Assembly: GCA_003597955.1 (NCBI GenBank)
Contig: QZJU01000008.1
Coordinates: 1 to 56,129, forward strand
Direction: 5' to 3'
Origin: Candidatus Parcubacteria bacterium
GTDB taxonomy: Bacteria; Patescibacteriota; Patescibacteriia; PEXW01
DNA length: 56,129 nucleotides
Each line of letters begins with the position of its first letter. Within the stretch, counting starts at the first letter, position 1. The position numbers were made by a program, and so were the translations under genes. Below are positions 3,406-56,129 of the stretch, one piece after another. The notes beneath the pieces are model-generated. The model worked only from the letters and a program-made list of their open reading frames with translations. It had not been told where the DNA came from and ran no database searches.

Positions 3406-3458
3406 TTTTGAAAAAACATTTACCCCGTACAATTTTTTGTTAAAAGTGACTTTTTTGA

Positions 3459-3564
3459 CCCCGCACCACTTTTCATAAACAGAACTTAATATTTGACCAT
3501 GGATTTTCACCCGAAAAAATTTCCTCCTCAAAAAGAAAGTCCTTTGTTAAAAAGTGGTGCGGGA
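3459..3564 (+). repeat. Hairpin leader module copy 1 (arms 3459-3475 / 3548-3564, 72-nt loop)
   Basis: Left arm CCCCGCACCACTTTTCA, right arm TAAAAAGTGGTGCGGGA (15/17 complementary). The loop contains the start of the 3493 ORF. Confidence 0.85.
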
Positions 3565-4410
3565 TTTACCTTTATCGAAACTCTGGTGGCTTTGTCGGTC
3601 TTGATGATTTTGCTTGGTTTGATTTTGGCCACCTACCGTCGGGGAAATGAGGACAGTATTTTGAACCGAGAAATTACATTACTAATGAGCCGATTTAGAT
3701 TAGCTCAAGAACAAACCGCTGGCGGAACGGTTGGTCGATATTGCGAACAGCCATATTACGGCATTTCCTGCCAAACCGACTCGAATTGTCCTGGGGGGTA
3801 TGCGTGTCGAAGCGCTGACGCCCCAAAAGGCGGGTATGTGATGGCTTTTAATTGCGATCCAAAACCAGAATCCGGAGCGCAATGGGGTTGGGGTTTTGAT
3901 TACCCTAAAATTGGTGATGTAAGCAAAGCTAATACAACCCCGTATTTCCTTTTTGGGGAAAGAGTTTCTTGTGACAGTAATTGTTATTCTGGTAATGATA
4001 ATAATTGGGTTTATGGGTTGGCTGACGAAAAAACTTCGCTTTTTAGTCGTATTGTGGGCGATACGGTGGTAAGCACTTTTCAACTTGACAACCGCGCGAT
4101 TTTTAAGGATTTGCAAATAATTTCTTCAAACCAGGAAAAGTATTGGTGTAATTCCGCACTGCCTTGGCGAGTCGTGCCCGTACCCAGTGATTATCCCTTG
4201 ATCGCCACAGTTCGTTTTAAACCGTCCGATGGTCGGCAGATTGAAATAACCAATAACGTTAGCATAAAGACTCCTAGCGGTTATGATTGGACAAAAGTTG
4301 AAGTCATGTTCGGCTTGCGGAGCCGAAATACAGATTGTCAGGTTGTCGCTTTTAGCCGCGAAGGCGTAGTTAGCAAGTATCTTGATACCAATTGCAGTTT
4401 TGCAAATTAA
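3493..4410 (+). CDS. Large prepilin-like protein, paralog 1 (long leader, G|FTFIE)
   Basis: MTMDFHPKKFPPQKESPLLKSGAG|FTFIETLVALSVLMILLGL. Track start is TTG 3493; an in-frame ATG lies at 3499. N- and C-terminal thirds are shared with ORFs 4832 and 6288. Confidence 0.7.
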   Translation: MTMDFHPKKFPPQKESPLLKSGAGFTFIETLVALSVLMILLGLILATYRRGNEDSILNREITLLMSRFRLAQEQTAGGTVGRYCEQPYYGISCQTDSNCPGGYACRSADAPKGGYVMAFNCDPKPESGAQWGWGFDYPKIGDVSKANTTPYFLFGERVSCDSNCYSGNDNNWVYGLADEKTSLFSRIVGDTVVSTFQLDNRAIFKDLQIISSNQEKYWCNSALPWRVVPVPSDYPLIATVRFKPSDGRQIEITNNVSIKTPSGYDWTKVEVMFGLRSRNTDCQVVAFSREGVVSKYLDTNCSFAN

Positions 4411-4515
4411 TCCCGTACCACTTTTCATTAACAGACCTTAGTATTTACCATGAATTTTCACCCAAAAAAATTCCCTCCTCAAAAATCAAACCCTTTGTTG
4501 AAAAGTGGTGCGGGG
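4411..4515 (+). repeat. Hairpin leader module copy 2, carrying an orphan leader (ATG 4450) with no pilin body
   Basis: Arms TCCCGTACCACTTTTCA / TGAAAAGTGGTGCGGGG. The loop encodes MNFHPKKFPPQKSNPLLKSGAG, then the frame runs into GIY-YIG upstream sequence. Confidence 0.8.
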
Positions 4516-4537
4516 CTAACCATGTTAATATTTTATC

Positions 4538-4786
4538 ATGCACTACGTATATTTATTGACCAATCGGATAAATCAAACAATTTACATAGGCTCAACAAAT
4601 AACCTAAAGAGGCGGATTCAAGACCATAATAAGGGTTTGATATTTTCAACAAAAAGATATTTACCTTGGAAATTAATTTATTATGAAGCATATTCCGATG
4701 AAGCCTTAGCTCGAAGGAGAGAAAAGCGACTGAAATATCATGGCAATTCAATTCGTGAATTAAAAAAACGAGCAGGAATAACTTAA
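4538..4786 (+). CDS. Small GIY-YIG nuclease (COG2827 / YhbQ-like)
   Basis: YVYLLTNRINQTIYIGSTNNLKRRIQDHN...KRLKYHG, i.e. GIY-YIG core (YVY...YIG), conserved Arg and Glu positions. 82 aa single-domain form. Confidence 0.85.
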   Translation: MHYVYLLTNRINQTIYIGSTNNLKRRIQDHNKGLIFSTKRYLPWKLIYYEAYSDEALARRREKRLKYHGNSIRELKKRAGIT

Positions 4787-4798
4787 TTAATGGGTTTA

Positions 4799-4903
4799 CC
4801 CCGCACCACTTTTCACTAACCATCTAATTACTTGACTCAAGAACATTCACCAGAGAAATATCCAAAACCTAAAAAACGCCTTTTGTTGAAAAGTGGTGCG
4901 GGG
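4799..4903 (+). repeat. Hairpin leader module copy 3 (arms 17/17 complementary, 71-nt loop, loop type 2)
   Basis: CCCCGCACCACTTTTCA at 4799-4815 and TGAAAAGTGGTGCGGGG at 4887-4903. Confidence 0.9.
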
Positions 4904-5863
4904 TTTACTTTCATCGAAACTTTGGTCGCCATAGGCATTCTTTTGGCTTTGCTGGCTGTGGTCTTGGCCAATTACCGTCGGGGCAATGACGACAGCGTGT
5001 TAAATCGGGAAGTTAGCCTGATGATGTCGCGGGTCAGGTATGCCCAAGAACTGACTTCAGCCGGAACTATAAGCAAGCATTGTCAGGCACCGCATTACAA
5101 CAAGCAGTGCAGTTCCGATGCTGAATGCACAAGTTTTCCCGGCACAGGCCTAAAGGGTTGTCAGCCAAAGCATTGCAGCTTAACTACTGGAACAACTTGT
5201 GCTTCCGATGTAGACTGCCCCGGCGGTGAAAAATGCATATCCGCGACCTTAACACCCGAAGGCGGATATGTGATGGCTTTTAATTGCAAGCCGGATTATG
5301 CAAATTATCCATGGGATTATTATGCAAATTACCCCCAAATTGGGTTGGGTCCAATCCCATACTTTCTCTTTGCTGAGCGTATTGATTGTAAAAACGATTG
5401 TTATGTCAGATTTAATACTTCTTGGGTCTACGATAAATCTGACGGGATAATCAGTTTTTATTTAGCAAACCCTTTTCCGCCCGGAGCTAATCCAAAAGGC
5501 GAGACCGTGGTGGAAATTTTTAAACCTTCACGCCAGATTGTCTTAAGAGATATTCAGCTAATCTCGGGTGTAGATAAATATTCCTGTCAGACGGGTTCTC
5601 CCTGGCGTAATCGGACAATCGCCGGCAAGACCATCCCAGCAGATTATCCTTTGCAAGCTACAGTGAATTTTAAAACTCCTGATGGCCGAAAGTCGATGTT
5701 GACAGACAATATTAGCAAAACCACTCCTGCCGGGTTCGAATGGACGAAGTTAGAGGTTATGCTGGGTATAAAAAACCGCACTACGGATTGCCGGGTGGTA
5801 AGCATTACCAAAGACAGCGTTATCAGCCAGAGCCTTGACGAGAATTGCAGTTTTAGCTCTTAA
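4832..5863 (+). CDS. Large prepilin-like protein, paralog 2
   Basis: TTG start; ...KKRLLLKSGAG|FTFIETLVAIGILLALLAVVLANYRRGN. Cys-rich variable middle; C-terminus ...TDCRVVSITKDSVISQSLDENCSF is shared with the paralogs. Confidence 0.7.
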   Translation: MTQEHSPEKYPKPKKRLLLKSGAGFTFIETLVAIGILLALLAVVLANYRRGNDDSVLNREVSLMMSRVRYAQELTSAGTISKHCQAPHYNKQCSSDAECTSFPGTGLKGCQPKHCSLTTGTTCASDVDCPGGEKCISATLTPEGGYVMAFNCKPDYANYPWDYYANYPQIGLGPIPYFLFAERIDCKNDCYVRFNTSWVYDKSDGIISFYLANPFPPGANPKGETVVEIFKPSRQIVLRDIQLISGVDKYSCQTGSPWRNRTIAGKTIPADYPLQATVNFKTPDGRKSMLTDNISKTTPAGFEWTKLEVMLGIKNRTTDCRVVSITKDSVISQSLDENCSFSS

Positions 5864-5968
5864 TCCCGCATCACTTTTCACTAACCATCTAATTACTTGA
5901 CCCAAGGACATTCACCAGAGAAATATCCAAAACCTAAAAATCACCTTTTGATGAAAAGTGGTGCGGGA
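5864..5968 (+). repeat. Hairpin leader module copy 4, orphan type-2 leader (TTG 5897) with no pilin body
   Basis: Arms TCCCGCATCACTTTTCA / TGAAAAGTGGTGCGGGA. The terminal T1/A17 change is compensatory. Confidence 0.8.
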
Positions 5969-5990
5969 TCCATCATTATTATTTTTAAAA

Positions 5991-6240
5991 ATGTATTACG
6001 TTTATTTATTAATAAGTAGTAAGAGACGGACAATATACATCGGCTCTACAAATAATTTTAAGAAAAAGAATTAAGGAACATAATAAGGGACTAGTTTTTT
6101 CCACCAGAAGGTATATGCCATTGAAATTGTTCTATTATGAAGTATATACAGACGAAAAAGCCGTCCGACAAAGAGAAAAAAGTTTGAAATATCACGGTAA
6201 TTCAGTCAAGGAATTAAAAAGGAGAGTTGGTATATCTTAG
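5991..6240 (+). pseudogene. GIY-YIG nuclease pseudogene (single frameshift)
   Basis: Reads MYYVYLLISSKRRTIYIGSTNNFKKKN then stop. The +1 frame continues RKRIKEHNKGLVFSTRRYMPLKLFYYEVYTDEKAVRQREKSLKYHGNSVKELKRR, collinear with the intact copy at 4538. Confidence 0.75.
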
Positions 6241-6253
6241 ATCTATGGGTTTA

Positions 6254-6359
6254 CCCCGCACCACTTTTCATTAACAGACTGTAAATTTTGACCATGGATT
6301 TTCACCCGAAAAAATTCCCGACTCAAAAAGAAAGCTCTTTGTTGAAAAGTGGTGCGGGG
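6254..6359 (+). repeat. Hairpin leader module copy 5 (arms 17/17, 72-nt loop, loop type 1)
   Basis: CCCCGCACCACTTTTCA at 6254-6270 and TGAAAAGTGGTGCGGGG at 6343-6359. Confidence 0.9.
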
Positions 6360-7319
6360 TTTACTTTGATTGAAACCCTTGTTGCGACCGGGATACTATT
6401 GGGTTTATTGGCCGTGGTGCTGGCCAATTACCAAAGGGGCGCTCAAGAGAGCGCTTTACATAGAGAAGCTGAATTATTTATGTCAAATATCCGTTTGGTC
6501 CAGGAGCAAACTGCCGCTGGTCAAATCGTTAATTATTGCTTGCACTATGTGGGCGCTGATTGTTTAACTGGATGTTCGGGTTATTCTTGCAGTCCTAAGC
6601 AAGAAACGCCTAAGGGTGGTTTTGGGCTTTTGGTCGGGTGTCAGCTAAATAGCGAGCCCGGCTGGGATCAGCCCTGGATTATTTATGGCGCAAATAATTC
6701 CTATCCTTCTCAAAATTCCACGAAAAAACAGGCTTATTATCTTTTTTCTGATAACCGCGCATGCTGGAATAATACGGGAACCGATTACTGTTGTTACCCC
6801 CTAACCAATTTTAGCTGTATCGGTTATGACGAAGGAACTGGCGACGCAGCTTCGGGTTCAGATGGCATCGTCACCACTCGACAATTTACTTTACTAAAAG
6901 GTGATACCCTAGAAAGAGAGCATGTTTTAGATAAGCAAATAGAATTTAAAGATTTAAGGCTCACGCGATATGTTCAGACGACCGGGAGTTTAAAGACTTA
7001 TTCTTGCCGTTCAGTTCATCCCGATAACCATACCCCTTGGCGAAATTTAAAGGTTCCCCAAACAAATTCTATGGTTATCAGTAATTATCACCTTGCAGCT
7101 TTGTTAAGATTTTTACCGCCCAACGGTCGTAAAGTTGTCATTTCCGACAATATTGCGGATTACCCACCAGATGCGGCAGGTCAACCAGATAAAAACAATC
7201 CTTGGTTAAAGGCGGAAGTTATGCTGGGCATAAAAAACCGCGCTACGGATTGCCGGGTGGTGAGCGTTAGCAAAGAGGGAGTAATCAGCCAGTCAGTTGA
7301 TTCAGACTGTGCTTTTTAG
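6288..7319 (+). CDS. Large prepilin-like protein, paralog 3
   Basis: MTMDFHPKKFPTQKESSLLKSGAG|FTLIETLVATGILLGLLAVVLANYQRG. C-terminus ...TDCRVVSVSKEGVISQSVDSDCAF. Confidence 0.7.
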   Translation: MTMDFHPKKFPTQKESSLLKSGAGFTLIETLVATGILLGLLAVVLANYQRGAQESALHREAELFMSNIRLVQEQTAAGQIVNYCLHYVGADCLTGCSGYSCSPKQETPKGGFGLLVGCQLNSEPGWDQPWIIYGANNSYPSQNSTKKQAYYLFSDNRACWNNTGTDYCCYPLTNFSCIGYDEGTGDAASGSDGIVTTRQFTLLKGDTLEREHVLDKQIEFKDLRLTRYVQTTGSLKTYSCRSVHPDNHTPWRNLKVPQTNSMVISNYHLAALLRFLPPNGRKVVISDNIADYPPDAAGQPDKNNPWLKAEVMLGIKNRATDCRVVSVSKEGVISQSVDSDCAF

Positions 7320-7331
7320 TAAAGTTAGTGT

Positions 7332-8345
7332 GTGAAACCTAAGATTCGACGGGCAAAAAAACCAAAGAAAATTTTTAAAGGCGCGGCCCTGCTGGAGTCG
7401 GTTATTGCCATTGGCGTCATCATGACCGGCGTAGTCGGTTCTTTGGTTCTGATCAACACCACCATCAAACTTGGCCGGACCAACCAAGACCGGATTATTG
7501 CCCAAAATCTGGCTCGGGAAGGAATTGAGCTGGCATATGGTTTACGAAACTCCGCGACTTTGGTCCACACTGAAGATTCTACAGTTTCCTGGGATTCGTA
7601 TTTGTATAAGTTTACATTGAAATCGGGAAGCTACGACACTTTGTATGATTTAGGCACTGGCAATTATGATGCTGGAACTTGCGTCACCATTGCCGGCGGT
7701 GATGCCATTTTGGATATGTGTGACATTCAGGTTTTGTTATTACATTTATACGAAGGCGGCCCATTGCCTTCGATGTGTAACACCATTCCCAATGGCGGTA
7801 GCAATCCTTCCCCGGACGCCAATGGTTGTGATTTTAACAACGACGGCGTAACCGGAATTTTGGATGTGACATTCATGATCTCCTCATTTTATAAAGAATC
7901 ATACCAGTTTTCCGCTGGCTATCCTGTTTTGTCGACAAAATTTCAGCCCAACGCACAGCTAGTTTTTTATGATGTTCGTGACGGTGAGACTATAAATTTA
8001 AGTCAGATGTGGGACGATGCTCGCAGTCGGATACAGGTAAATAACGGCGCCTACGTGCAGAATGTGACCGAAGCCGGTAATACGCCGACCAAATTTTATC
8101 GAACCGTTATTATGCAGGAAGTATGCCGGGGCACTCAAAGCGGAAGCGAAGAGGCCGTTTTGGTGCCAACAGATTCAGTCTTAAATTGCTATGATTATGT
8201 GAAGGCGCAAGGTTGGTCAGATGCTGACGCTGGCACAATAAAAAAAGTTGGGGTTTTGGCTAATTCCGAAGTCCGTTGGCCAAGCCCAACCAGCGGGACT
8301 AAAGTTTTGTACCAAGAATATATTTATGACTGGCTTAACTTCTAA
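7332..8345 (+). CDS. Minor pilin-like protein (PilV-like N-terminus) with internal dockerin/EF-hand-like loop
   Basis: GTG start. KKIFKG|AALLESVIAIGVIMTGVVGSLVL prepilin-type signal. DFNNDGVTGILD matches the DxNxDGxxxxxD calcium loop of dockerin repeats. Confidence 0.6.
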   Translation: MKPKIRRAKKPKKIFKGAALLESVIAIGVIMTGVVGSLVLINTTIKLGRTNQDRIIAQNLAREGIELAYGLRNSATLVHTEDSTVSWDSYLYKFTLKSGSYDTLYDLGTGNYDAGTCVTIAGGDAILDMCDIQVLLLHLYEGGPLPSMCNTIPNGGSNPSPDANGCDFNNDGVTGILDVTFMISSFYKESYQFSAGYPVLSTKFQPNAQLVFYDVRDGETINLSQMWDDARSRIQVNNGAYVQNVTEAGNTPTKFYRTVIMQEVCRGTQSGSEEAVLVPTDSVLNCYDYVKAQGWSDADAGTIKKVGVLANSEVRWPSPTSGTKVLYQEYIYDWLNF

Positions 8346-8445
8346 CCCCGCACCACTTTTCATTAACAACCTTAATATTTGACCATGGATTTTCACCCGA
8401 AAAAATTCCCGACTCAAAAAGAAAACCCTTTGTTGAAAAAGGTGG
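8346..8445 (+). repeat. Hairpin leader module copy 6 (tandem duplicate, right arm truncated to TGAAAAAGGTGG)
   Basis: The 104-bp unit 8346-8449 repeats at 8450-8553. Its leader (TTG 8379) is orphaned and reads into the next left arm. Confidence 0.85.
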
Positions 8446-8449
8446 TTTA

Positions 8450-8554
8450 CCCCGCACCACTTTTCATTAACAACCTTAATATTTGACCATGGATTTTCAC
8501 CCGAAAAAATTCCCGACTCAAAAAGAAAACCCTTTGTTGAAAAGTGGTGCGGGG
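8450..8554 (+). repeat. Hairpin leader module copy 7 (arms 17/17, 71-nt loop)
   Basis: CCCCGCACCACTTTTCA at 8450-8466 and TGAAAAGTGGTGCGGGG at 8538-8554. Confidence 0.9.
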
Positions 8555-9322
8555 TTTACTCTTATTGAAGTCATCGTGGCTACTGCCGTTTTTTCTATGG
8601 CCATGGTTTTGGCCACCACAGTTTTCGTGGTTTTCCTGCAACAGCAAAGGCGCACAATCAATCAGCAGGAAATGCAGAATGACGCCCGGGCCGTGATGGA
8701 GGAAATCGCGCAAAAACTGCGAGAAGGCGTAGCTGACTATGCTTATTACGCCACGAATTTTAACCTAGCACCCCAAAAGCTTTTAAGCAGTTTGAACGGT
8801 TCGAATGATGAGTGTTTGGTGATTCGCGATGCGCTTAACGAGCAATATTTTTATCGCTTGGCAGGAGGCAAGATTCAGAAGTTTTCTACTTCGACGCCGG
8901 GCACTACTGCCTGCAGCACGATTGCCAACTGGTCGGATATTACACCCGCCTCTTTGACGGTTGAGGCATTTTCAATTTTTATTTCCCCTTCCCAAGATCC
9001 CTTTCAGGGCAAATCTTATAAGGCCTGCGGCAAGCCAGGTGACTTTTTGGATCCGCCGGATAACGACAAGTGTACAGATTGGGGAACTTTTTGCACCGTT
9101 GACGGAAACACCTGTGAATACCAAAAATTAACCAATAGCATTTTGACCTGCTATTGCACGCCCCAAAGGTTCGGCAATGTCGTTCCTTTGCATCCCAAAG
9201 TCACCATAAGCCTGAAAGTTTCCAGAGTTGCGGGTCAATTGACTTTAAGCGAAACTTACCAAACTACGATTACTAGCCGGATTTTCAAGAATTTCGATAA
9301 ATTAAACCGGTATGCGCCGTAA
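8483..9322 (+). CDS. Minor pilin-like protein (PilW-like) using the same leader module
   Basis: MTMDFHPKKFPTQKENPLLKSGAG|FTLIEVIVATAVFSMAMVLATTVFVVF. Cys-rich C-terminal half. Confidence 0.6.
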   Translation: MTMDFHPKKFPTQKENPLLKSGAGFTLIEVIVATAVFSMAMVLATTVFVVFLQQQRRTINQQEMQNDARAVMEEIAQKLREGVADYAYYATNFNLAPQKLLSSLNGSNDECLVIRDALNEQYFYRLAGGKIQKFSTSTPGTTACSTIANWSDITPASLTVEAFSIFISPSQDPFQGKSYKACGKPGDFLDPPDNDKCTDWGTFCTVDGNTCEYQKLTNSILTCYCTPQRFGNVVPLHPKVTISLKVSRVAGQLTLSETYQTTITSRIFKNFDKLNRYAP

Positions 9323-26425: not shown

Positions 26426-26890
26426 ATGCACGGCAAAACCGCACCCAAAAGAAAAGTCCGACCTGATCCGAGGTATCAAAGCCAAGGTTTGGCGAAATTT
26501 ATCAACTATGTCATGGAGCGTGGCAAAAAATCCGTAGCCCAGAAAATAGTTTATGGTGCTTTGGAGCAAGTCGAGAAAAAAACCGGCAAAAAACCCCTGG
26601 ACGCTTTTGACTTGGCCATTCGGAATGTCTCACCGGTTGTGGAAGTTAAATCCCGGCGCGTTGGCGGCGCAAATTACCAAGTGCCGGTTGAAGTCCGCGG
26701 TGAAAGAAAGATGGCTTTGGCTTTTCGGTGGATTTTGGAGGCCGCTCGGAACAAGAAGGGCAGGCCGATGAACGAGAAGCTGGCAAATGAAATTATCGCT
26801 GCCATCAACAACGAAGGCGACGCCATCAAGAAAAAACAGGATGTTCACCGGATGGCTGAAGCTAACCGCGCCTTTGCGCATTTTGCGTAG
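26426..26890 (+). CDS. rpsG: 30S ribosomal protein S7
   Basis: ...[20 protein letters not shown]...ANRAFAHF. Confidence 0.97.
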
Positions 26891-26893
26891 ACC

Positions 26894-26926
26894 TACGAAT
26901 CTACGAATGCTTACGAATTTACGAAT
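26894..26926 (+). repeat. Four tandem TACGAAT heptamers (left boundary of GxxExxY cassette)
   Basis: TACGAAT at 26894, 26902, 26912 and 26920. Inverted relative to the ATTCGTA array at 27338-27362. Confidence 0.85.
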
Positions 26927-26932
26927 ATTGAG

Positions 26933-27328
26933 ATGGGAGGCGAGTTAAAAAGGAAAGATTTGGTTCATCCGGAGTTAAGTTATAAGGTAATAGGCATATT
27001 ATTTGAGGTTTTTAATGAATTAGGTCCTGGATTGCAAGAGAGGTATTATCAACGTGCTATTGCAGTAAGATTGAAACAGATCAATCTACCATACGCACAA
27101 GAAGTACGAGTTTCTTTAGATTTTAAGGTTGTAAATATTGGTGTATATTATTTGGACTTCTTAATAGAGAATAAAATTATTTTAGAAATTAAGCGTGGCA
27201 ATCGTTTTTTAAGGCAAAATATAGATCAAGTTGTTGGTTATTTAAAAGCATCGAAAAAGAAATTAGGTATTATCGCTAATTTTACAAACCAAGGCGTGAA
27301 ATACAAAAGAATTCTCAATTTATATTAA
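26933..27328 (+). CDS. GxxExxY protein (PD-(D/E)XK nuclease-like family)
   Basis: LVHPELSYKVIGILFEVFNELGPGLQERYYQRAI contains the family-defining G-x-x-E-x-x-Y (GLQERYY). Later DFLIENKIILEIK resembles a D...ExK nuclease core. Confidence 0.75.
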   Translation: MGGELKRKDLVHPELSYKVIGILFEVFNELGPGLQERYYQRAIAVRLKQINLPYAQEVRVSLDFKVVNIGVYYLDFLIENKIILEIKRGNRFLRQNIDQVVGYLKASKKKLGIIANFTNQGVKYKRILNLY

Positions 27329-27337
27329 TTTTCTTAG

Positions 27338-27362
27338 ATTCGTATATTCGTATTTATTCGTA
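27338..27362 (+). repeat. Three ATTCGTA heptamers (right boundary of GxxExxY cassette)
   Basis: ATTCGTA at 27338, 27346 and 27356, the reverse complement of the upstream heptamer. Confidence 0.85.
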
Positions 27363-27376
27363 ATTAGTAGTCATTT

Positions 27377-27508
27377 ATGCCCAGAGAATACAGCCTAGAA
27401 GACACCCGAAACATTGGCATTATCACCCATATTGACGCCGGCAAAACCACCCCGCACCAGTCGCTTCGCTCCGTTGCGGGGCAGGCTAAACTAAGTCTTA
27501 TTAAATAA
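27377..27508 (+). pseudogene. Ghost copy of the fusA 5' end (25 codons) fused to unrelated sequence
   Basis: Encodes [25 protein letters not shown], 24/25 aa identical to the real fusA start at 27512. About 21 of 75 nt differ, almost all synonymous. Homology ends at CCCCGCACCA. Confidence 0.8.
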
Positions 27509-27511
27509 CTT

Positions 27512-29587
27512 ATGCCAAGAGAATACTCACTTGAGGATACGAGGAATATCGGAATTATTGCTCATATTGATGCTGGTAAAACTACTGTATCAGAAAGAAT
27601 TTTGTTTTACACCGGCAAAAAGCATAAAATCGGCGAAGTACATGAAGGCGAAGCCGAAATGGACTGGATGGAACAGGAAAAAGAGCGGGGTATAACTATT
27701 ACCGCTGCGGCGACCACCTGCTTTTGGAAAAATAAGCGCATTAACCTGATTGACACGCCCGGGCACATTGATTTTACGGTGGAAGTTCAAAGATCTTTGC
27801 GCGTGCTGGATGGCGGCGTGGTAGTTTTTGACGGCGTGGCCGGAGTGGAATCGCAATCCGAAACCGTTTGGCATCAGGCGGAGAAGTTCGGCGTGCCCAG
27901 GATATGTTTCATAAATAAAATGGACCGGATGGGTGCGGATTTTTATTTCGACTTAAACAGCATTCACGAAAGACTAACCGCAAGAGCACACCCCTTGCAG
28001 TTGCCGATCGGCGCCGCCGAAACTTTTAAAGGCCTGGTCGATCTTCTGGAACGCAAGGCCATAATTTACAAAGACGATTTAGGCAAGGAATTTGAGCAGG
28101 TTGAAGTCCCGTCTGATATGAAAGAAAAAGTTGAAGAGTTTCGACACAAACTTTTGGAAGCGATCGTGGAACAGGATGAAAATTTATTGAACCAGTATTT
28201 GGAGGGCAAAGAGCCGCCCTTGGCCGACTTAAAAAAAGTTTTGCGCAAAGCCTGCATCAGCAACGCCATAGTTCCGGTACTGTGCGGTTCGGCTTTGAAA
28301 AACAAAGGCGTTCAGTTTTTGCTCGACGCCATCATTGAATACCTCCCAAATCCTTTGGAAATCCCCGTGACCAAAGGCATGGATCCGAAAACCAACCAGG
28401 AAATTCCTTGCGATCCGGCTGACGACAAACCGTTTGCGGCCTTGGTTTTCAAGATTGCGGCCGACCCCTTTGTGGGGAAGTTGGCTTTTTTTCGAGTTTA
28501 TTCCGGAACTTTGAACGCCGGCTCATATGTTTTAAACACCTCTACTGGCGACAAGGAGCGTATCGGCCGGATTGTCCGGTTGCACGCCAATCACCGGGAA
28601 GATGTGGATACGGTCTATGCCGGCGAAATTGCTGCGGCCGTGGGCCTAAAAAACACTTTTACCGGCCAAACCATTTGCGATCCTAATCGACCCGTGGTTT
28701 TGGAAAGCATTACTTTCCCCGCACCGGTCATTGATTTGGCGATTGAGCCCAAAACCAAAGCCGACCAGGAAAAGATGGGGCTGGCCATTCAACGCTTGGC
28801 TGAAGAAGACCCGACTTTTCGCGTAAAATACAACGAGGAAACCAACCAAACCATTATTTCCGGCATGGGCGAATTGCACCTGGAGATTATCGTTGACCGG
28901 ATGAAACGGGAATTCAAAGTCGAAGCGAATGTCGGCAAACCCCAAGTGGCTTACAAAGAAACGATTCTGGCCAACGCCGAAGGCGAAGGTAAGTATATCC
29001 GCCAGACCGGCGGCCGAGGTCAATACGGCCATTGCTGGGTTAAAGTTCAGCCCTTGGAAAGAGGCAAGGGCTATGAATTCGTGGATGAAGTCAAAGGCGG
29101 TTCGATTCCACAAGAGTACATTCAGCCCATAAACAAAGGCATTAAGGAAGCTTTGGACAAAGGCATTTTAGCCGGCTACCCGGTAATTGATATGCAAGTA
29201 ACGGTTTACGATGGTTCGTATCACGAGGTTGATTCCTCGGAAATGGCTTTTAAAATCGCCGGTTCCATGGCTGTGCAGGCCGCCGTTAAAAGGGCTAAAC
29301 CGATTTTGTTGGAGCCGATAATGAAAATTGAAGTCGTAACGCCGGAAACCTTCATGGGCGATGTGATCGGCGATCTGAATTCCAAACGCGCGCAAATAAA
29401 GGAAATGCGTGATCGCGGTAGCATGAAGGTCATTGATGCAGAAGTGCCTTTGGCGGAGATGTTTGGTTATGCCACGGCTTTAAGGTCAATGACCCAAGGT
29501 CGGGCTTCGTACAGCATGGAATTTTCCCATTACGCAGAAGTGCCCCGAAATGTGACTGAGCAGATAATCGCCAAGACCAAAGCTTAA
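27512..29587 (+). CDS. fusA: Elongation factor G
   Basis: [22 protein letters not shown]-domain motifs. 691 aa. Confidence 0.97.
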
Positions 29588-29619
29588 AGGTGAATCAGGC
29601 GGTGTTTGGTTTGGGTTGA

Positions 29620-29728
29620 CCCCGCACCGCTTTCCAGCCGAATACTTTTTACCTGCTTACAGAATATTCAGCCTGGCAAATATCTTTTACGCTTAAATCC
29701 AAGACTTGAGTTGGAAAGTGGTACGGGG
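29620..29728 (+). repeat. Hairpin module copy 8 (non-pilin context, unrelated 75-nt loop)
   Basis: Arms CCCCGCACCGCTTTCCA / TGGAAAGTGGTACGGGG, pairing with one G-U and one C-A. Confidence 0.8.
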
Positions 29729-29729
29729 T

Positions 29730-29758
29730 TTGACGAAAAATTCCGGTTCTGTTATACT
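29730..29758 (+). promoter_or_regulatory. Candidate promoter of tuf
   Basis: TTGACG (29730-29735), 17-nt spacer, TATACT (29753-29758). The -35 box starts 2 nt after the hairpin module's right arm. Confidence 0.55.
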
Positions 29759-45800: not shown

Positions 45801-45801
45801 A

Positions 45802-45906
45802 CCCCGCACCACTTTCCAAATTAAACCTTAGGTTTAGTGTAAGGTTATTTGCCTAATAAATATTTTAGTACTAAATGTTGGCGTTTTGCTGGAAAGTGGT
45901 GCGGGG
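45802..45906 (+). repeat. Hairpin module copy 9 (non-pilin context, unrelated 71-nt loop)
   Basis: Arms CCCCGCACCACTTTCCA / TGGAAAGTGGTGCGGGG, 17/17 complementary. The left arm starts 2 nt after the DUF192 stop. Confidence 0.85.
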
Positions 45907-45935
45907 TTGACTGGCTTTCAGATTTTTGGTAAATT
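45907..45935 (+). promoter_or_regulatory. Candidate promoter of rplU
   Basis: TTGACT (45907-45912), immediately after the right arm, 17-nt spacer, TAAATT (45930-45935). Confidence 0.5.
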
Positions 45936-50796: not shown

Positions 50797-50872
50797 GCGC
50801 CTATAGCTCAATTGGCAGAGCAGGGGCCTTTTAAGCCCAAGGTTGGAGGTTCGATTCCTCCTGGGCGCACCA
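50797..50872 (+). tRNA. tRNA-Lys (anticodon UUU), CCA encoded
   Basis: GCGCCTA-TA-GCTC-AATTGGCA-GAGC-A-GGGGC-CTTTTAA-GCCCA-AGGTT-GGAGG-TTCGATT-CCTCC-TGGGCGC-A-CCA. One G-A mismatch at 27:43. Confidence 0.9.
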
Positions 50873-52309
50873 ACTAGAAAATGAGGCGCTTTGCGCCGCC
50901 ACAGCCCAGCCCAAATGGGCTTCAAATCGCAGCGTTTTGCCTTTCAAAAGAAAGTTCGAGCCGATATTTTTCATTGAATTCTTAATTTCCAAGAGGTCGC
51001 GCGAGATTGCGACTTTTTTGGCTTGCTTGCTTAGTAAAATGAATTCTCGCATGGGTTCGAGCCAAACCAAACCCTCGCCCCGGAGTTGAGCGAATTTTTC
51101 CTCAATTCTCACTTTTTCATTTACTAGGGTGTCTTTCTTGGATAAATACTCCGAAGTGGAAATAGATCGCTCTAGCTTTGCGTCTAAAAGATTGTCCAAT
51201 TTCTTTTCAACAACGATCAACGTATCTTTTTTCTCTTGGGCGAGGGCTTTAGTGGTTTGCTCATTACGTTCTTTTTCCGTATCTAGCTTCGCCAGCATTT
51301 TATCAGCCCAATCATCACGAATAGAATGGCTGGTTAAAGTCGCCCTCATTTGCTCAACCAGTGCTTCTTCACGCAAGAATTTAGTTTCGCATTTGCCTTT
51401 CTTCTTAGTGCAACGGTAGTACGTATGTCCTTTCTGGCTTTCAGCTGTAATGTAGCAGCCGCAAGAAGCGCATTTCATCAAACCAAGAAAGGCAAAGTTG
51501 TGTTTCTTTACTTCCCTCGCGCGACCTCGTTTACGCATCATCGCCCGGGCCTTATCAAATAAATCTCTAGAAATGAATGTGTCGTGGCTTCCTTGGTACG
51601 TTTCATCCCAGTAAGTGAACACGCCGACGTAAAAGGTATTTTTCAGCATGTTTTGCATCATACTGGCGGAAAACGGATGCCCCCAGTGGCTTTTAATTTT
51701 GGCTTTGGTATTGCACCATTTGGCAAGCGCATCTAGTGTCCAGTCGCCGGTTAAGTACATAGCGAAAATTTTCTTCACTATCTTGGCTTCTCGCTTTTCA
51801 ATCAGCACTTTTCTGCTCTTCGGGTCATTAAAGTAACCAAGTGGTGCCATAGACGGCCACTCACCACGGCGTAGTTTTTGTCTCAAGCCCCGTTTTACGT
51901 TTTCCGAGAGATTGTCCACGTAGTACTTGGATTGCCCAAAGGCAATATTCAGCATGAATTTCCCTTGCGGCGTGTTCTCAAACCAAAATGTGGGGAATTT
52001 CAGGTTTTGAATTTTATCCCTATCGGTCAGGTAAATGACCTGCCCACCGTCTACGGGGTTTCTAGCTAATCTGTCGGGGTGCCAGGCGATGATGCCATTG
52101 GCTTCGCCTTTTTCAATTCTCTTGAGCATCTCATTGAAGATTTTTCGCCCGGGTTCTTTGGCAGTTTTTGCCTCGCAGAGCGAGGCGACGATTTCAAGTT
52201 TTTCTTTGGCGGCAAATTCTTTTAATTCATCAATTTGAGATTCAATACTTAAAACCTGACGATCCTCCTCGTCAGTGGATTTTCTGGCGTAGAGAAAATA
52301 TTTATCCAT
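50831..52309 (-). CDS. Large serine recombinase 1 (resolvase/invertase catalytic domain + recombinase + zinc-ribbon domains)
   Basis: N-terminal YARKSTDEEDRQVLSIESQ (catalytic Ser context), DRLARNP, Cys cluster CASCGC...YYRCTKKKGKC, coiled-coil tail. The last 13 codons are antisense to tRNA-Lys. Confidence 0.88.
   Translation of the reverse strand: MDKYFLYARKSTDEEDRQVLSIESQIDELKEFAAKEKLEIVASLCEAKTAKEPGRKIFNEMLKRIEKGEANGIIAWHPDRLARNPVDGGQVIYLTDRDKIQNLKFPTFWFENTPQGKFMLNIAFGQSKYYVDNLSENVKRGLRQKLRRGEWPSMAPLGYFNDPKSRKVLIEKREAKIVKKIFAMYLTGDWTLDALAKWCNTKAKIKSHWGHPFSASMMQNMLKNTFYVGVFTYWDETYQGSHDTFISRDLFDKARAMMRKRGRAREVKKHNFAFLGLMKCASCGCYITAESQKGHTYYRCTKKKGKCETKFLREEALVEQMRATLTSHSIRDDWADKMLAKLDTEKERNEQTTKALAQEKKDTLIVVEKKLDNLLDAKLERSISTSEYLSKKDTLVNEKVRIEEKFAQLRGEGLVWLEPMREFILLSKQAKKVAISRDLLEIKNSMKNIGSNFLLKGKTLRFEAHLGWAVAAQSASFSSWCAQEESNLQPWA
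50867..50945. repeat. IR-A left copy (79 bp, begins with the tRNA 3' end GCACCA)
   Basis: Base-for-base reverse complement of 52376-52454, checked by hand. Confidence 0.9.
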
Positions 52310-54603: not shown

Positions 54604-56129
54604 TCAAAACGGCGCGGCAGCGGGCGGCGGCTGGGTCTCCTCCGCGCGCGAGCCGCCGCCCGCAAACTCGGTTCGTATTTTCTCAAAAAGACTGCACCAT
54701 AGACGAAACGCAGGCTGGAGATTGTCATTTCGACGCACGTCTATTAGCGAAATCGAGGGTTCGATCATTAGCTTGTGAACCTCAGGACTGACAATCGCAC
54801 TTCGGATCAACTGAAACGGTTTGACGGCTTCAATATTAAGTATTCCATCCCTCAGAGTGAGGTTCGAACCTACGGAATGCAGAATCTCGCGTTTGTCTCG
54901 GTCGGTTCCCTTCTGGAATCTCCTGACGGCAACGCCGGCAAATTCAAAGATATTGGCACATCGCTTTCCTACTTCGGAAGAGTGGTGTTTCCTCTTGGCA
55001 ACCGATTCCTGCAGACCAATACGCTCATCCTCCAGTTCGCGCTTCTTCTCAATATATTCTTCGTCTGAAAGCAGTCCCCGGATTCTTAGATTCGTCAGTT
55101 CGGATAACTCTTTGGCACAAGCCCCAAGCCGTCGCTCAATGGATAAAGCCTGTTCCGCTTCCAATACCTTGTCTTTATCATCAAGCGATTTCAGATGACG
55201 GAGGGTCCAACCCACCAAAACTTTGGGAATGGAGATTTGTTCCAGGAATTGCACGATCTGTCGCTCCAATTTGTTCAATTCAATCACCCTTTGACCGCAC
55301 TTGATTCCTGGTCTTCTCTTTGTGCAATGGTAATAGACATATTGGTGCCCCTGACGGTTCACTTTGTGCTCTGCAGTCACCGACGCACCGCATTCTCCAC
55401 ACTTAATTAGACCGGTGAAAGCGAATTCGCGGTGGCGAGGGCGCGGACTGGAATTATTGGTCAAAAGTCTCTGAACGAGGTCGAATTCAGATTTGCTCAC
55501 CATCGCTTCATGCGCACCTCGACAACTCAGACCCCGACGGACGATGAGACCGTAATAAAAGGGATTCCGGAATAGATCATAAATAGCGGAAAGGGCCATG
55601 GGACCGCCGCCCTGCCGGCGAAAGACACGAGTCCTTAGGCCCCATTCCTTCGTTGCGATTGCAAGAATCCTCGGTGGCGTGATATTGCCAGTCAACATCA
55701 TATCCCACATCTTGCGAATAAGCCGGAACCGTTCCGGGTCTTTAACGATTGTCCGGCTGTTACGGTCATTCAAATATCCGATCGGCGGGACTCCCGGCAG
55801 CCAGCCGGCCTCCAGCTTCGCCCTCAATCCCCGTTTCACGTTATCCGAAAGATCATCGACATATTTTTTCGCCATGCCGAATTCCAGTTGCATCCAGAAC
55901 TTGTCGTTACTGGTATTGGAAAAAGAGCGCTGGGGAGTATGGATCGCCTTAAGCTTGCCTTCTTCCATCGCCCAGATAATCGCACCGCCGTCGACGGGAT
56001 TCCGAGCCAGCCGGTCGAGTTTCCAACAGAGTGTCAAGACCCCCAAAATTAAGACACTTTTTCGACGAGTGGGAGCAGCCGTTGGGCAAACAATACCGGC
56101 GGCATTTTCAGTACCGAATGAATACGGGT
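54604..56129 (-). CDS. Large serine recombinase 2 (5' end probably beyond window edge)
   Basis: Collinear with recombinase 1 from LDRLARNPVDGG onward; Cys cluster CGECGA...YYHCTKRRPGIKC. The frame stays open upstream of track start 56046 to the window end, and the catalytic Ser region is not in the window. Confidence 0.85.
   Translation of the reverse strand, partial: PYSFGTENAAGIVCPTAAPTRRKSVLILGVLTLCWKLDRLARNPVDGGAIIWAMEEGKLKAIHTPQRSFSNTSNDKFWMQLEFGMAKKYVDDLSDNVKRGLRAKLEAGWLPGVPPIGYLNDRNSRTIVKDPERFRLIRKMWDMMLTGNITPPRILAIATKEWGLRTRVFRRQGGGPMALSAIYDLFRNPFYYGLIVRRGLSCRGAHEAMVSKSEFDLVQRLLTNNSSPRPRHREFAFTGLIKCGECGASVTAEHKVNRQGHQYVYYHCTKRRPGIKCGQRVIELNKLERQIVQFLEQISIPKVLVGWTLRHLKSLDDKDKVLEAEQALSIERRLGACAKELSELTNLRIRGLLSDEEYIEKKRELEDERIGLQESVAKRKHHSSEVGKRCANIFEFAGVAVRRFQKGTDRDKREILHSVGSNLTLRDGILNIEAVKPFQLIRSAIVSPEVHKLMIEPSISLIDVRRNDNLQPAFRLWCSLFEKIRTEFAGGGSRAEETQPPPAAAPF
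54606..54699. repeat. IR-B right copy (94 bp, ends with GCACCA)
   Basis: Perfect reverse complement of 52449-52542. Encodes the last 31 codons of recombinase 2. Confidence 0.9.

Follow-up and report, generated by a model that had tools for sequence, protein, structure and literature searches.

A GxxExxY nuclease-family cassette and a second, truncated fusA start adjoin in the rpsG-fusA spacer of a Candidatus Parcubacteria bacterium

The window analysed here is a 56,129-nt stretch of DNA from a Candidatus Parcubacteria bacterium, and its positions serve as coordinates throughout. Between rpsG and fusA, the genes of ribosomal protein S7 and elongation factor G (EF-G), it carries a gene of the GxxExxY family framed by inverted arrays of heptamers, then a truncated copy of the fusA start (termed the ghost below), a short hairpin (H) and the full-length, resident fusA. 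The best reading of this locus is that two separate things adjoin, a long-resident cassette and a displaced fusA start. The ghost is most likely the trace of a later fusA-start replacement associated with a mobile hairpin.

The rpsG-fusA interval

The gap between rpsG and fusA measures 621 nt, as compared to typically 20-130 nt in about 150 other genomes. The slot following rpsG has a GC content of 26-36%, versus about 48% in its flanks. An earlier, sequence-only reading had described heptamers, a nuclease-like gene, a fusA fragment and a hairpin in this gap. All of these are found where it had placed them; its observation is confirmed and its interpretation is partly supported. Single contigs of two independent public sequencing runs (one DNA, one RNA) cover 27375-27762, from the ghost through the hairpin into fusA, and the arrangement is therefore not an assembly artefact. 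The features of the interval, in order, are the following.

26426-26890, + strand: rpsG (ribosomal protein S7), upstream neighbour of the slot; an open reading frame (ORF) of 154 aa, with Pfam Ribosomal_S7 annotated on the identical contig L001
26887-27374, + strand: polymorphic slot, from the rpsG stop to the putative old fusA start, filled here by the GxxExxY cassette
26894-26926, + strand: left array, four TACGAAT heptamers (26894, 26902, 26912, 26920) with spacers of 1, 3 and 1 nt
26933-27328, + strand: GxxExxY / PDDEXK_3 gene, 131 aa, with intact catalytic signature (profile matches)
27338-27369, + strand: right array, three ATTCGTA (27338, 27346, 27356) and one ATTAGTA (27363-27369), mirror image of the left array (inverted repeat)
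27377-27451, + strand: ghost, fusA codons 1-25, most likely a displaced native start (comparison with the resident start and with relatives)
27377-27508, + strand: 43-codon ORF running from the ghost ATG through the hairpin to a TAA 3 nt before the resident ATG
27449-27486, + strand: hairpin element H (ACCCCGCACCAGTCGCTTCGCTCCGTTGCGGGGCAGGC), a 38-nt imperfect palindrome and dispersed repeat (predicted fold)
27487-27511, + strand: AT-rich leader of 25 nt between H and the resident start (read directly)
27512-29587, + strand: resident fusA (EF-G, 691 aa), full length, with all EF-G Pfam domains
27548-27607, + strand: recoded tract over P-loop codons 13-32, nearly all of which end in A or T (2 of 20 third positions are G or C)

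Below, L-numbers denote fetched contigs or loci of other genomes, and X1, X2 and X6 public sequencing runs. Among species-representative genomes, the best S7 matches belong to the Candidate Phyla Radiation (CPR, or Patescibacteria) at identities of at most 70%, and S7 scans of genomes and metagenomes likewise returned solely relatives at 70% identity or less. Close relatives were located through exact-protein look-ups. Both the nearest EF-G (90% identical) and the nearest GxxExxY protein (85%) are those of Candidatus Kerfeldbacteria CG08_land_8_20_14_0_20_43_14.

Two fusA starts in direct tandem

Ghost and resident start stand in direct tandem, 135 nt apart. They differ at 21 of 75 nucleotides and at one of 25 amino acids, residue 17 being Thr in the ghost and Ala in the resident copy. 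The excess of synonymous changes is marked (P ~1e-9; Nei-Gojobori counts, binomial test). The proportion of synonymous differences (pS) amounts to ~1.05, versus 0.72-0.75 between orthologues, and essentially every synonymous site differs. The ghost is the richer of the two in C/G-ending codons, with a G+C content at third codon positions (GC3) of 0.60 against 0.24 for the first 25 resident codons. The near-identical peptide, the almost wholly synonymous differences and the codon bias had all been noticed from the letters and are borne out. The same holds for the deduction that purifying selection acted on both starts as coding sequence while they diverged; accordingly, one of them stems from an allelic replacement and not from a fresh local duplication.

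The Thr at position 17 replaces an Ala kept in all relatives examined. In a sister strain represented in runs X1 and X2, the ghost codon is GCC (Ala), so that the Thr is absent there, as expected for a recently released sequence. No ORF lies in the 60 nt between the ghost end and the resident start (27452-27511), no integrase gene was found there, and the leader at 27487-27511 contains no Shine-Dalgarno-like motif. Other genes of the window have no ghost starts, except for the pilin leaders described below.

The resident copy is in turn distinguished by its recoded tract, which is identical at 53 of 60 nt to that of L182, a distant CPR contig whose EF-G shares 76% protein and 70% DNA identity. 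Codons 26-29 illustrate the recoding: they read GTA TCA GAA AGA in the resident gene, versus GTT TCC/TCA GAG CGN in the ghost-free L162, L168, L174 and L175.

The GxxExxY cassette

The 131-aa cassette protein is a clear member of the GxxExxY family, as had been proposed from its PD-(D/E)XK-like appearance. It matches PF13366 (E=3.9e-28, 98.6 bits, cut-off 22) and TIGR04256 'GxxExxY' (E=1.9e-29, 102.4 bits, cut-off 35). The eponymous motif is GLQERYY (residues 33-39), and all catalytic residues are kept: E36, D75, E85 and K87, corresponding to the E, D and ExK of PD-(D/E)XK nucleases, are invariant in 13 homologues. Relative to the L162 copy, the gene displays 82% nucleotide identity, with a proportion of nonsynonymous differences (pN) of 0.08 and a pS of 0.56, indicating purifying selection. 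Given the invariant nuclease residues and this selection, the gene looks functional. The family is listed as being of unknown function and as having undergone many horizontal transfers (PMC3424549). No biochemistry of GxxExxY proteins was found in the literature searched, and a search by sequence found no solved structure of a relative.

The four TACGAAT heptamers on the left and three inverted ATTCGTA heptamers on the right had been recognized from the letters; the fourth, variant copy of the right array, ATTAGTA, had been overlooked. Together the arrays form an inverted repeat of 25 nt with 84% complementarity. The window holds 14 copies of TACGAAT, versus 5.95 +/- 2.2 expected, a count reached in none of 100 shuffles. 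The four-heptamer layout with spacers 1-3-1 and a downstream mirror image is found again in nine cassettes (8 other lineages). In L175 and L189 the heptamer is TACTAAT with ATTAGTA, the variant switching on both sides together, and in several lineages the complementarity is lengthened by a few lineage-specific bases. All cassettes are AT-rich compared with their host genomes. Folding of the cassette RNA pairs the arrays with each other, both in the minimum-free-energy and in the centroid structure. In a consensus fold of the cassettes, double changes occur at 2 of 21 pairs (3 sequence instances), the covariation term is unfavourable and the spacers are unpaired. An RNA or DNA stem and protein-binding terminal repeats would thus both fit the arrays equally well. 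Neither the arrays nor H have a match in Rfam, and no description of inverted four-heptamer arrays (1-3-1) or of a preferred rpsG/fusA slot was found in the literature searched.

Cassette homologues reside between rpsG and fusA in at least six further Kerfeldbacteria-like lineages (L162-167, L168-173, L174, L175-177, L179/180 and L189). The same heptamer-bounded cassette also occurs in two unrelated contexts, namely between a ferredoxin-thioredoxin-reductase-like gene and transketolase in L178 and between two very large genes in L185-188. Conversely, L181 has the rpsG/fusA slot without a cassette. Presence also differs at the strain level: the X1/X2 contigs of the sister strain are 99% identical to the window up to 26886 and from 27375, with other sequence in between that starts with TTAAAATGCTGGATAGTGAATGCCT, ends with TAATTAAGATTAATCACTTTTCTTGAC and contains nothing of the window's cassette. 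The view of the cassette as a discrete heptamer-bounded module, present in some strains only, is thereby upheld. The X1/X2 slot may hold a cassette of a different type.

To note, the X1/X2 slot is itself delimited by near-inverted heptamers, AGTGAAT on the left and AATCACT on the right. Another small element sits inside the right heptamer array of L162 (4449-4545). It is G+C-rich, ~85 nt long, and has inverted ends (CCACCCGCC ... GGCGGTGG); considered as a possible copy of H, it proved to be a different small element.

Between the window and L162, pS is 0.56 for the cassette, 0.82 for rpsG and 0.72 for fusA. Because the cassette has diverged about as much as its two neighbours, it would already have been in the common ancestor of the window and L162, and would be older than the event that produced the ghost. 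Its content follows another course than its surroundings. Among the window, L162 and L180, EF-G is 89-90% and S7 84-89% identical, versus 85, 52 and 52% for the GxxExxY protein. L180 is as near as L162 by EF-G and S7, yet its GxxExxY allele is 52% identical. The Spearman correlation with EF-G identity is 0.29 (not significant) for GxxExxY and 0.69 for S7. As with homing endonucleases, the nuclease gene stands alone in a spacer, the slot is filled in 7 lineages, empty in L181 and occupied by other content in X1/X2, and GxxExxY identities are incongruent with those of EF-G and S7. When the window is compared with the cassette-less X1/X2, the flanks remain 99% identical right to the boundaries 26886 and 27375, and no co-conversion tracts are found in them. 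The cassette is best read as a long-resident, self-contained module whose content is occasionally swapped or lost.

The ghost had been interpreted as a scar of cassette insertion. This is not supported: the cassette occupies the same slot in at least six other lineages, a ghost without this cassette is found in the sister strain, L182 has two ghosts without any cassette in the 2.4 kb upstream, cassette-bearing relatives are ghost-free, and the cassette appears to be the older of the two. Since the sister strain has a ghost without the cassette and the cassette-bearing relatives have no ghost, the ghost would be independent of the cassette. The rpsG-fusA spacer is a recurrent insertion site in CPR.

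Enlarged rpsG-fusA gaps of 435-2985 nt, filled with unrelated genes, were also observed in the CPR genomes L004, L005, L007, L013, L014, L065 and L080.

Hairpin H at the ghost end

The homology between ghost and fusA had been reported to cease at CCCCGCACCA, the beginning of the left arm of a hairpin module, and to be followed by a short CCCCGCA...TGCGGGG hairpin. Both statements are accurate. The hairpin folds as predicted, and CCCCGCACCA is matched exactly at 27450-27459, at the edge of H. The left edge of H overlaps ghost codons 24-25 via the microhomology CCACC. The window contains 13 copies of CCCCGCACCA, all others lying in the arms of ~105-bp hairpin modules, with which H shares its outer 10 nt.

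Beyond the window, H occurs in the groundwater run X6 on four contigs aligning to 27448-27487, with 1-3 mismatches and a summed depth of ~69. Three of them have distinct, unrelated flanks; the fourth, 61 nt long with palindromic flanks, is maybe an assembly fold-back. H thus appears to be a highly conserved, independent dispersed repeat. No promoter-like or terminator-like site was found at H or in the leader, and exact-pattern scans of a viral collection, for H and for the AT-type tract separately, gave no match.

Recurrence in a distant lineage

A search with the ghost ORF led to L182, the distant CPR contig mentioned above, whose sequence is also found in the independent Logan assembly L183. 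There, fusA adjoins neither rpsG nor tuf, no rpsG or GxxExxY gene is present in the 2.4 kb upstream of the starts, and three fusA starts follow each other in tandem, two ghosts (2436-2711) and the full gene. Copy 1 comprises 18 codons and is followed by a shorter sequence read as a degenerate remnant of H. Copy 2 comprises 38 codons, has its conserved His18 changed to Arg, and ends at a hairpin homologous to H, CCCCGCACAATTCGCTTCGCTCGTGTACGGGGCA versus CCCCGCACCAGTCGCTTCGCTCCGTTGCGGGGCA in the window (~81% identity, read off by eye). By their look, the upstream copies are thus the more decayed ones, copy 1 by its degenerate hairpin and copy 2 by its His18 to Arg change. The L182 copies differ almost only synonymously (P 6e-15), and their leaders are unrelated to one another. 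All three ghost junctions, one in the window and two in L182, fall on CAC or CCACC, a motif that the left edge of the hairpin has in common with the P-loop codons. Short ORFs resembling the EF-G N-terminus also occur in other phyla; they were not counted as ghosts, and the one inspected (L184) stems from a frameshift-ridden long-read assembly.

The tandem disposition of the copies and the junction microhomology, together with the lineage-specific residues found in both copies, would also be in line with a local event, in which the leader and the fusA 5' end were duplicated in tandem via the microhomology between H and the P-loop and the working copy was then recoded in place. Duplicates, however, start out identical. 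Here synonymous sites are saturated, yet the unconstrained ghost has acquired no amino acid change in X1/X2 and one in the window. Furthermore, duplication of a unit made of H, leader and start requires an H upstream of the ghost, which is absent, and the L182 leaders are unrelated. Local duplication is disfavoured on these grounds and appears very improbable.

Which fusA start is native

The position of the ghost provides a first indication. It lies directly 3' of the right array, the place of the true start codon in L168, L174, L175, L180 and L189; the sequence here, ATTAGTAGTCATTT-ATG, can be set against ATTAGTAGACT-ATG in L168. As the cassette appears to be ancestral, the sequence directly following it should be the ancestral start. 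Composition provides a second one. The GC3 of the ghost (0.60) is close to that of the fusA body (0.56), whereas the first 32 resident codons, at 0.22, have the lowest value of 45 window genes; these genes exhibit no general AT bias at their 5' ends (mean difference -0.016). The ghost is the more likely native start because its position is that of the start in relatives and its GC3 fits the fusA body. The earlier description of the ghost as an immigrant from another genome is not favoured by these two observations. Besides, H and an extreme A/T-ending tract at codons 13-32 co-occur in both ghost-bearing genomes; closer relatives have no H, and none of them has so extreme a tract. The lone amino acid change of the ghost, which affects a conserved Ala and is missing in X1/X2, points the same way. 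For the ghost being native, we see about an even chance.

The best explanation of the whole arrangement, which may well be right or wrong in equal measure, is accordingly phrased with the ghost as the displaced native start and with H, the leader and the recoded 5' end as newcomers, brought in by one crossover and one microhomology joint. A segment from a related genome, made up of H, the AT-rich leader of 25 nt and a fusA 5' end with different synonymous codons, would have recombined with the chromosome. On the right side, a normal homologous crossover would have taken place inside fusA, downstream of about codon 32; a compositional switch is visible near that codon. On the left side, the sequences would have been too diverged to pair, and the left edge of H would have been joined to native codons 24-25 via the 5-nt CCACC. 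Either homology-facilitated illegitimate recombination or the repair of a break from a diverged template would be expected to yield such a joint. Native codons 1-25 would thereby have been stranded in the 43-codon ORF, with EF-G made from the new start.

Ribosomes would probably re-initiate after the ghost ORF, a translational coupling suggested by the layout. The window ghost ORF ends 3 nt before the next start codon, and that of L182 copy 2 14 nt before it; copy 1 of L182 has its stop 8 nt within the copy that follows. EF-G synthesis may thus be driven by termination and re-initiation; the spacers are AT-rich, so such stops are not improbable by chance.

Several observations weigh against this explanation. 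Of 75 nt, L162 shares 59 with the ghost and 58 with the resident start, and L180 58 and 62, respectively; among 158 distinct fusA P-loop segments from fetched loci, identity follows GC content and does not tell the two copies apart. The resident P-loop tract is matched best by the resident copy of L182 (41/45), which is not decisive either. For Ser6, the ghost uses AGC, like the more distant L168; the resident copy uses TCA, like L162 and L180, the two closest relatives. Both window copies encode the residues of their own lineage (ED), as do all three L182 copies (EQ). The donor should therefore be a fairly close relative, yet the synonymous sites are saturated (pS ~1.0). In the scans made, no such donor was found, that is, no genome with H, leader and AT-type fusA lacking a ghost, and no strain was found in which the ghost is fused directly to the fusA body. 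Finally, the recoded tract covers codons 13-32 in both genomes, despite ghost lengths of 25 and 38 codons. This constancy points to selection on the recoded tract, which simple recombination leaves unexplained. The likeness of the two tracts could reflect convergence on the few A/T-ending codons available, or a nuclease-escape allele. A tract ending at a fixed distance past the ghost end, which would have tied both to one event, was considered and rejected on account of these same coordinates.

Part of this evidence would fit the reverse direction, in which the resident start and its H leader are native and the ghost was imported with or beside the cassette, then joined illegitimately to H in a failed cassette exchange. 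Since the slot exchanges alleles, donor DNA comprising the rpsG end, a cassette and a fusA start must circulate. The Ser6 codons and the slightly greater nearness of L180 to the resident start point the same way, and a microhomology joint at H is equally compatible with it. On the other hand, the cassette has diverged from L162 about as much as the flanking genes, leaving no place for a recent import and making an ancestral start the expected neighbour of the cassette. In the sister strain, the ghost is present without this cassette, the boundaries are sharp and the flanks 99% identical. The scenario would further require H and the AT-type tract to be native to two lineages as far apart as 76% EF-G identity, although all nearer relatives are devoid of them; the sharp drop in GC3 within a native gene would be left unexplained, and L182 would need a donor that itself carried a ghost. 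We regard the reverse direction as unlikely.

Hairpin modules and pilin leaders elsewhere in the window

Palindromic modules of ~105 bp, with 18-nt terminal inverted repeats ACCCCGCACCACTTTTCA ... TGAAAAGTGGTGCGGGGT, are dispersed over the window.

3458-3565, 4411-4518, 4798-4904, 5863-5970, 6253-6360, 8345-8555, 29619-29729 and 45801-45907: ~105-bp palindromic modules
29619-29729, + strand: the degenerate module among these, between fusA and tuf, with a ACCCCGCACC arm in common with H

Before pilin-like genes, the right arm of the module encodes the prepilin leader LLKSGAGFT. Two modules lie in non-pilin spacers (fusA/tuf, and DUF192-like gene/rplU), for which reason the module seems to behave like a dispersed repeat of the miniature inverted-repeat transposable element (MITE) kind.

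At 4447-4786 and 5897-6240, an orphan pilin leader cut after GGTGCGGGG precedes a small GIY-YIG gene, beyond which lies a fresh module together with an intact pilin gene. Of the two GIY-YIG genes, the first (4538-4786) is intact; a stop codon seems to interrupt the second. As GIY-YIG genes lie between orphan and fresh pilin leaders, nuclease-linked start replacement does seem, from this layout, to occur in this genome. The analogy that had been drawn between the fusA ghost and these orphan leaders is thus valid for the architecture, a ghost start next to an intact one, but not for the nuclease gene, which separates the copies in the pilin units and is missing between those of fusA.

These units bear on a nuclease-driven origin of the ghost. 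A sequence-specific, homing-endonuclease-like enzyme, possibly a GIY-YIG or GxxExxY protein of these genomes, would cut the GC-type fusA P-loop, repair would proceed from an immune, recoded allele, the ghost end would mark the break, and H would be part of the immune module. In both ghost-bearing genomes, the recoding indeed falls on codons 13-32, the P-loop and best-conserved coding stretch, where GC3 is near zero, and pS between ghost and resident start exceeds that between orthologues. The ghosts stop in a cluster around this tract, at codons 18, 25 and 38; the event recurred in L182, and the same window has its GIY-YIG genes between orphan and fresh leaders. Yet no nuclease gene stands between the ghost and the resident start, cassette-bearing relatives retain ordinary GC-type P-loop codons, the GxxExxY cassette is missing beside the ghosts of L182 and of the sister strain, and the near-identity of the AT tracts could result from the convergence mentioned above. 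This scenario is rather improbable in our view.

Two side observations concern the remainder of the window. The best promoter-like site near tuf, TTGACG-17-TATACT (10/12 matches, 29730-29758), lies immediately 3' of the degenerate module. Two large minus-strand ORFs, 50831-52309 and 54604-55968, have a similar N-terminus (tblastn E=2e-8) and are probable paralogues.

Comparison with known systems

Homology-facilitated illegitimate recombination has been described in the naturally transformable Acinetobacter baylyi, Streptococcus pneumoniae and Pseudomonas stutzeri, where one homologous anchor is combined with an illegitimate joint at a short G+C-rich microhomology of 3-10 bp, so that foreign DNA enters beside the anchor and a little recipient DNA is lost (PMC6382021). 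The proposed replacement at fusA resembles this process, with ~156 nt gained, ~21 nt lost and a joint at CCACC; the CCACC of the window and the CAC or CCAC at the two L182 junctions fall within this size range. It differs in that the known cases come from laboratory selections, whereas the present one, deduced from sequence, would be natural, concerns the start of an essential gene, leaves a duplicated coding fragment and occurs repeatedly at the edge of one hairpin repeat.

In Escherichia coli icd, prophage e14 and phage 21 replace the 3' end of the gene by one from the incoming DNA, and the displaced native end is kept. There, too, the functional gene is chimeric, its terminal part differs mainly synonymously, and the displaced end survives as a ghost. 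The e14/icd case, however, involves the 3' end, an integrase, an identical core and a whole prophage between the copies, in contrast to the 5' end, the absence of an integrase and the ~60 nt between the copies of fusA. Nor is a common core apparent here: the ghost ends at codon 25 and the new-type sequence extends to about codon 32, and in L182 the ghosts stop at codons 18 and 38.

In the hybrid atp6 gene of Allomyces (Paquin et al. 1994), a segment with a GIY-YIG endonuclease reportedly brought its own end of the target gene, the old end remaining as a pseudogene. The GIY-YIG/orphan pilin leader units of the window have exactly the layout of Allomyces atp6 and of T4-like free-standing homing endonucleases. 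Unlike Allomyces atp6, fusA has no nuclease gene between its copies; the GxxExxY gene is upstream of the ghost and older.

As for the repeats, H is comparable to repetitive extragenic palindromic (REP) or MITE-like elements, being a 38-nt imperfect palindrome in several unrelated contexts, and so are the ~105-bp modules with their 18-nt terminal inverted repeats and occurrence also outside pilin genes. Unlike REP elements as described, H is located at the breakpoints of gene-start duplications, and no cognate transposase was identified.

Implications

A more speculative and improbable proposal is that H, the leader and the AT-recoded P-loop start together constitute a mobile fusA start-replacement module, spreading in CPR by immunity to a DNA nuclease that targets the universally conserved P-loop coding sequence, each sweep stranding the previous start. 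If this were true, tandem ghosts such as those of L182 would record one round after another of an arms race in which an essential translation gene is at stake.

Few genes are as conserved and as hard to exchange as fusA, which is used as a phylogenetic marker. The locus described here suggests that a synonymously recoded copy, placed behind a mobile hairpin, may take over from its original start, and that this has recurred in two distant CPR lineages. Core translation genes of reduced genomes could thus be remodelled by illegitimate recombination, with ghosts as datable footprints. For the GxxExxY family, the four-heptamer inverted arrays, the preferred slot and the allele turnover supply a testable DNA context, which would be a first handle on the function of these widespread small nucleases.

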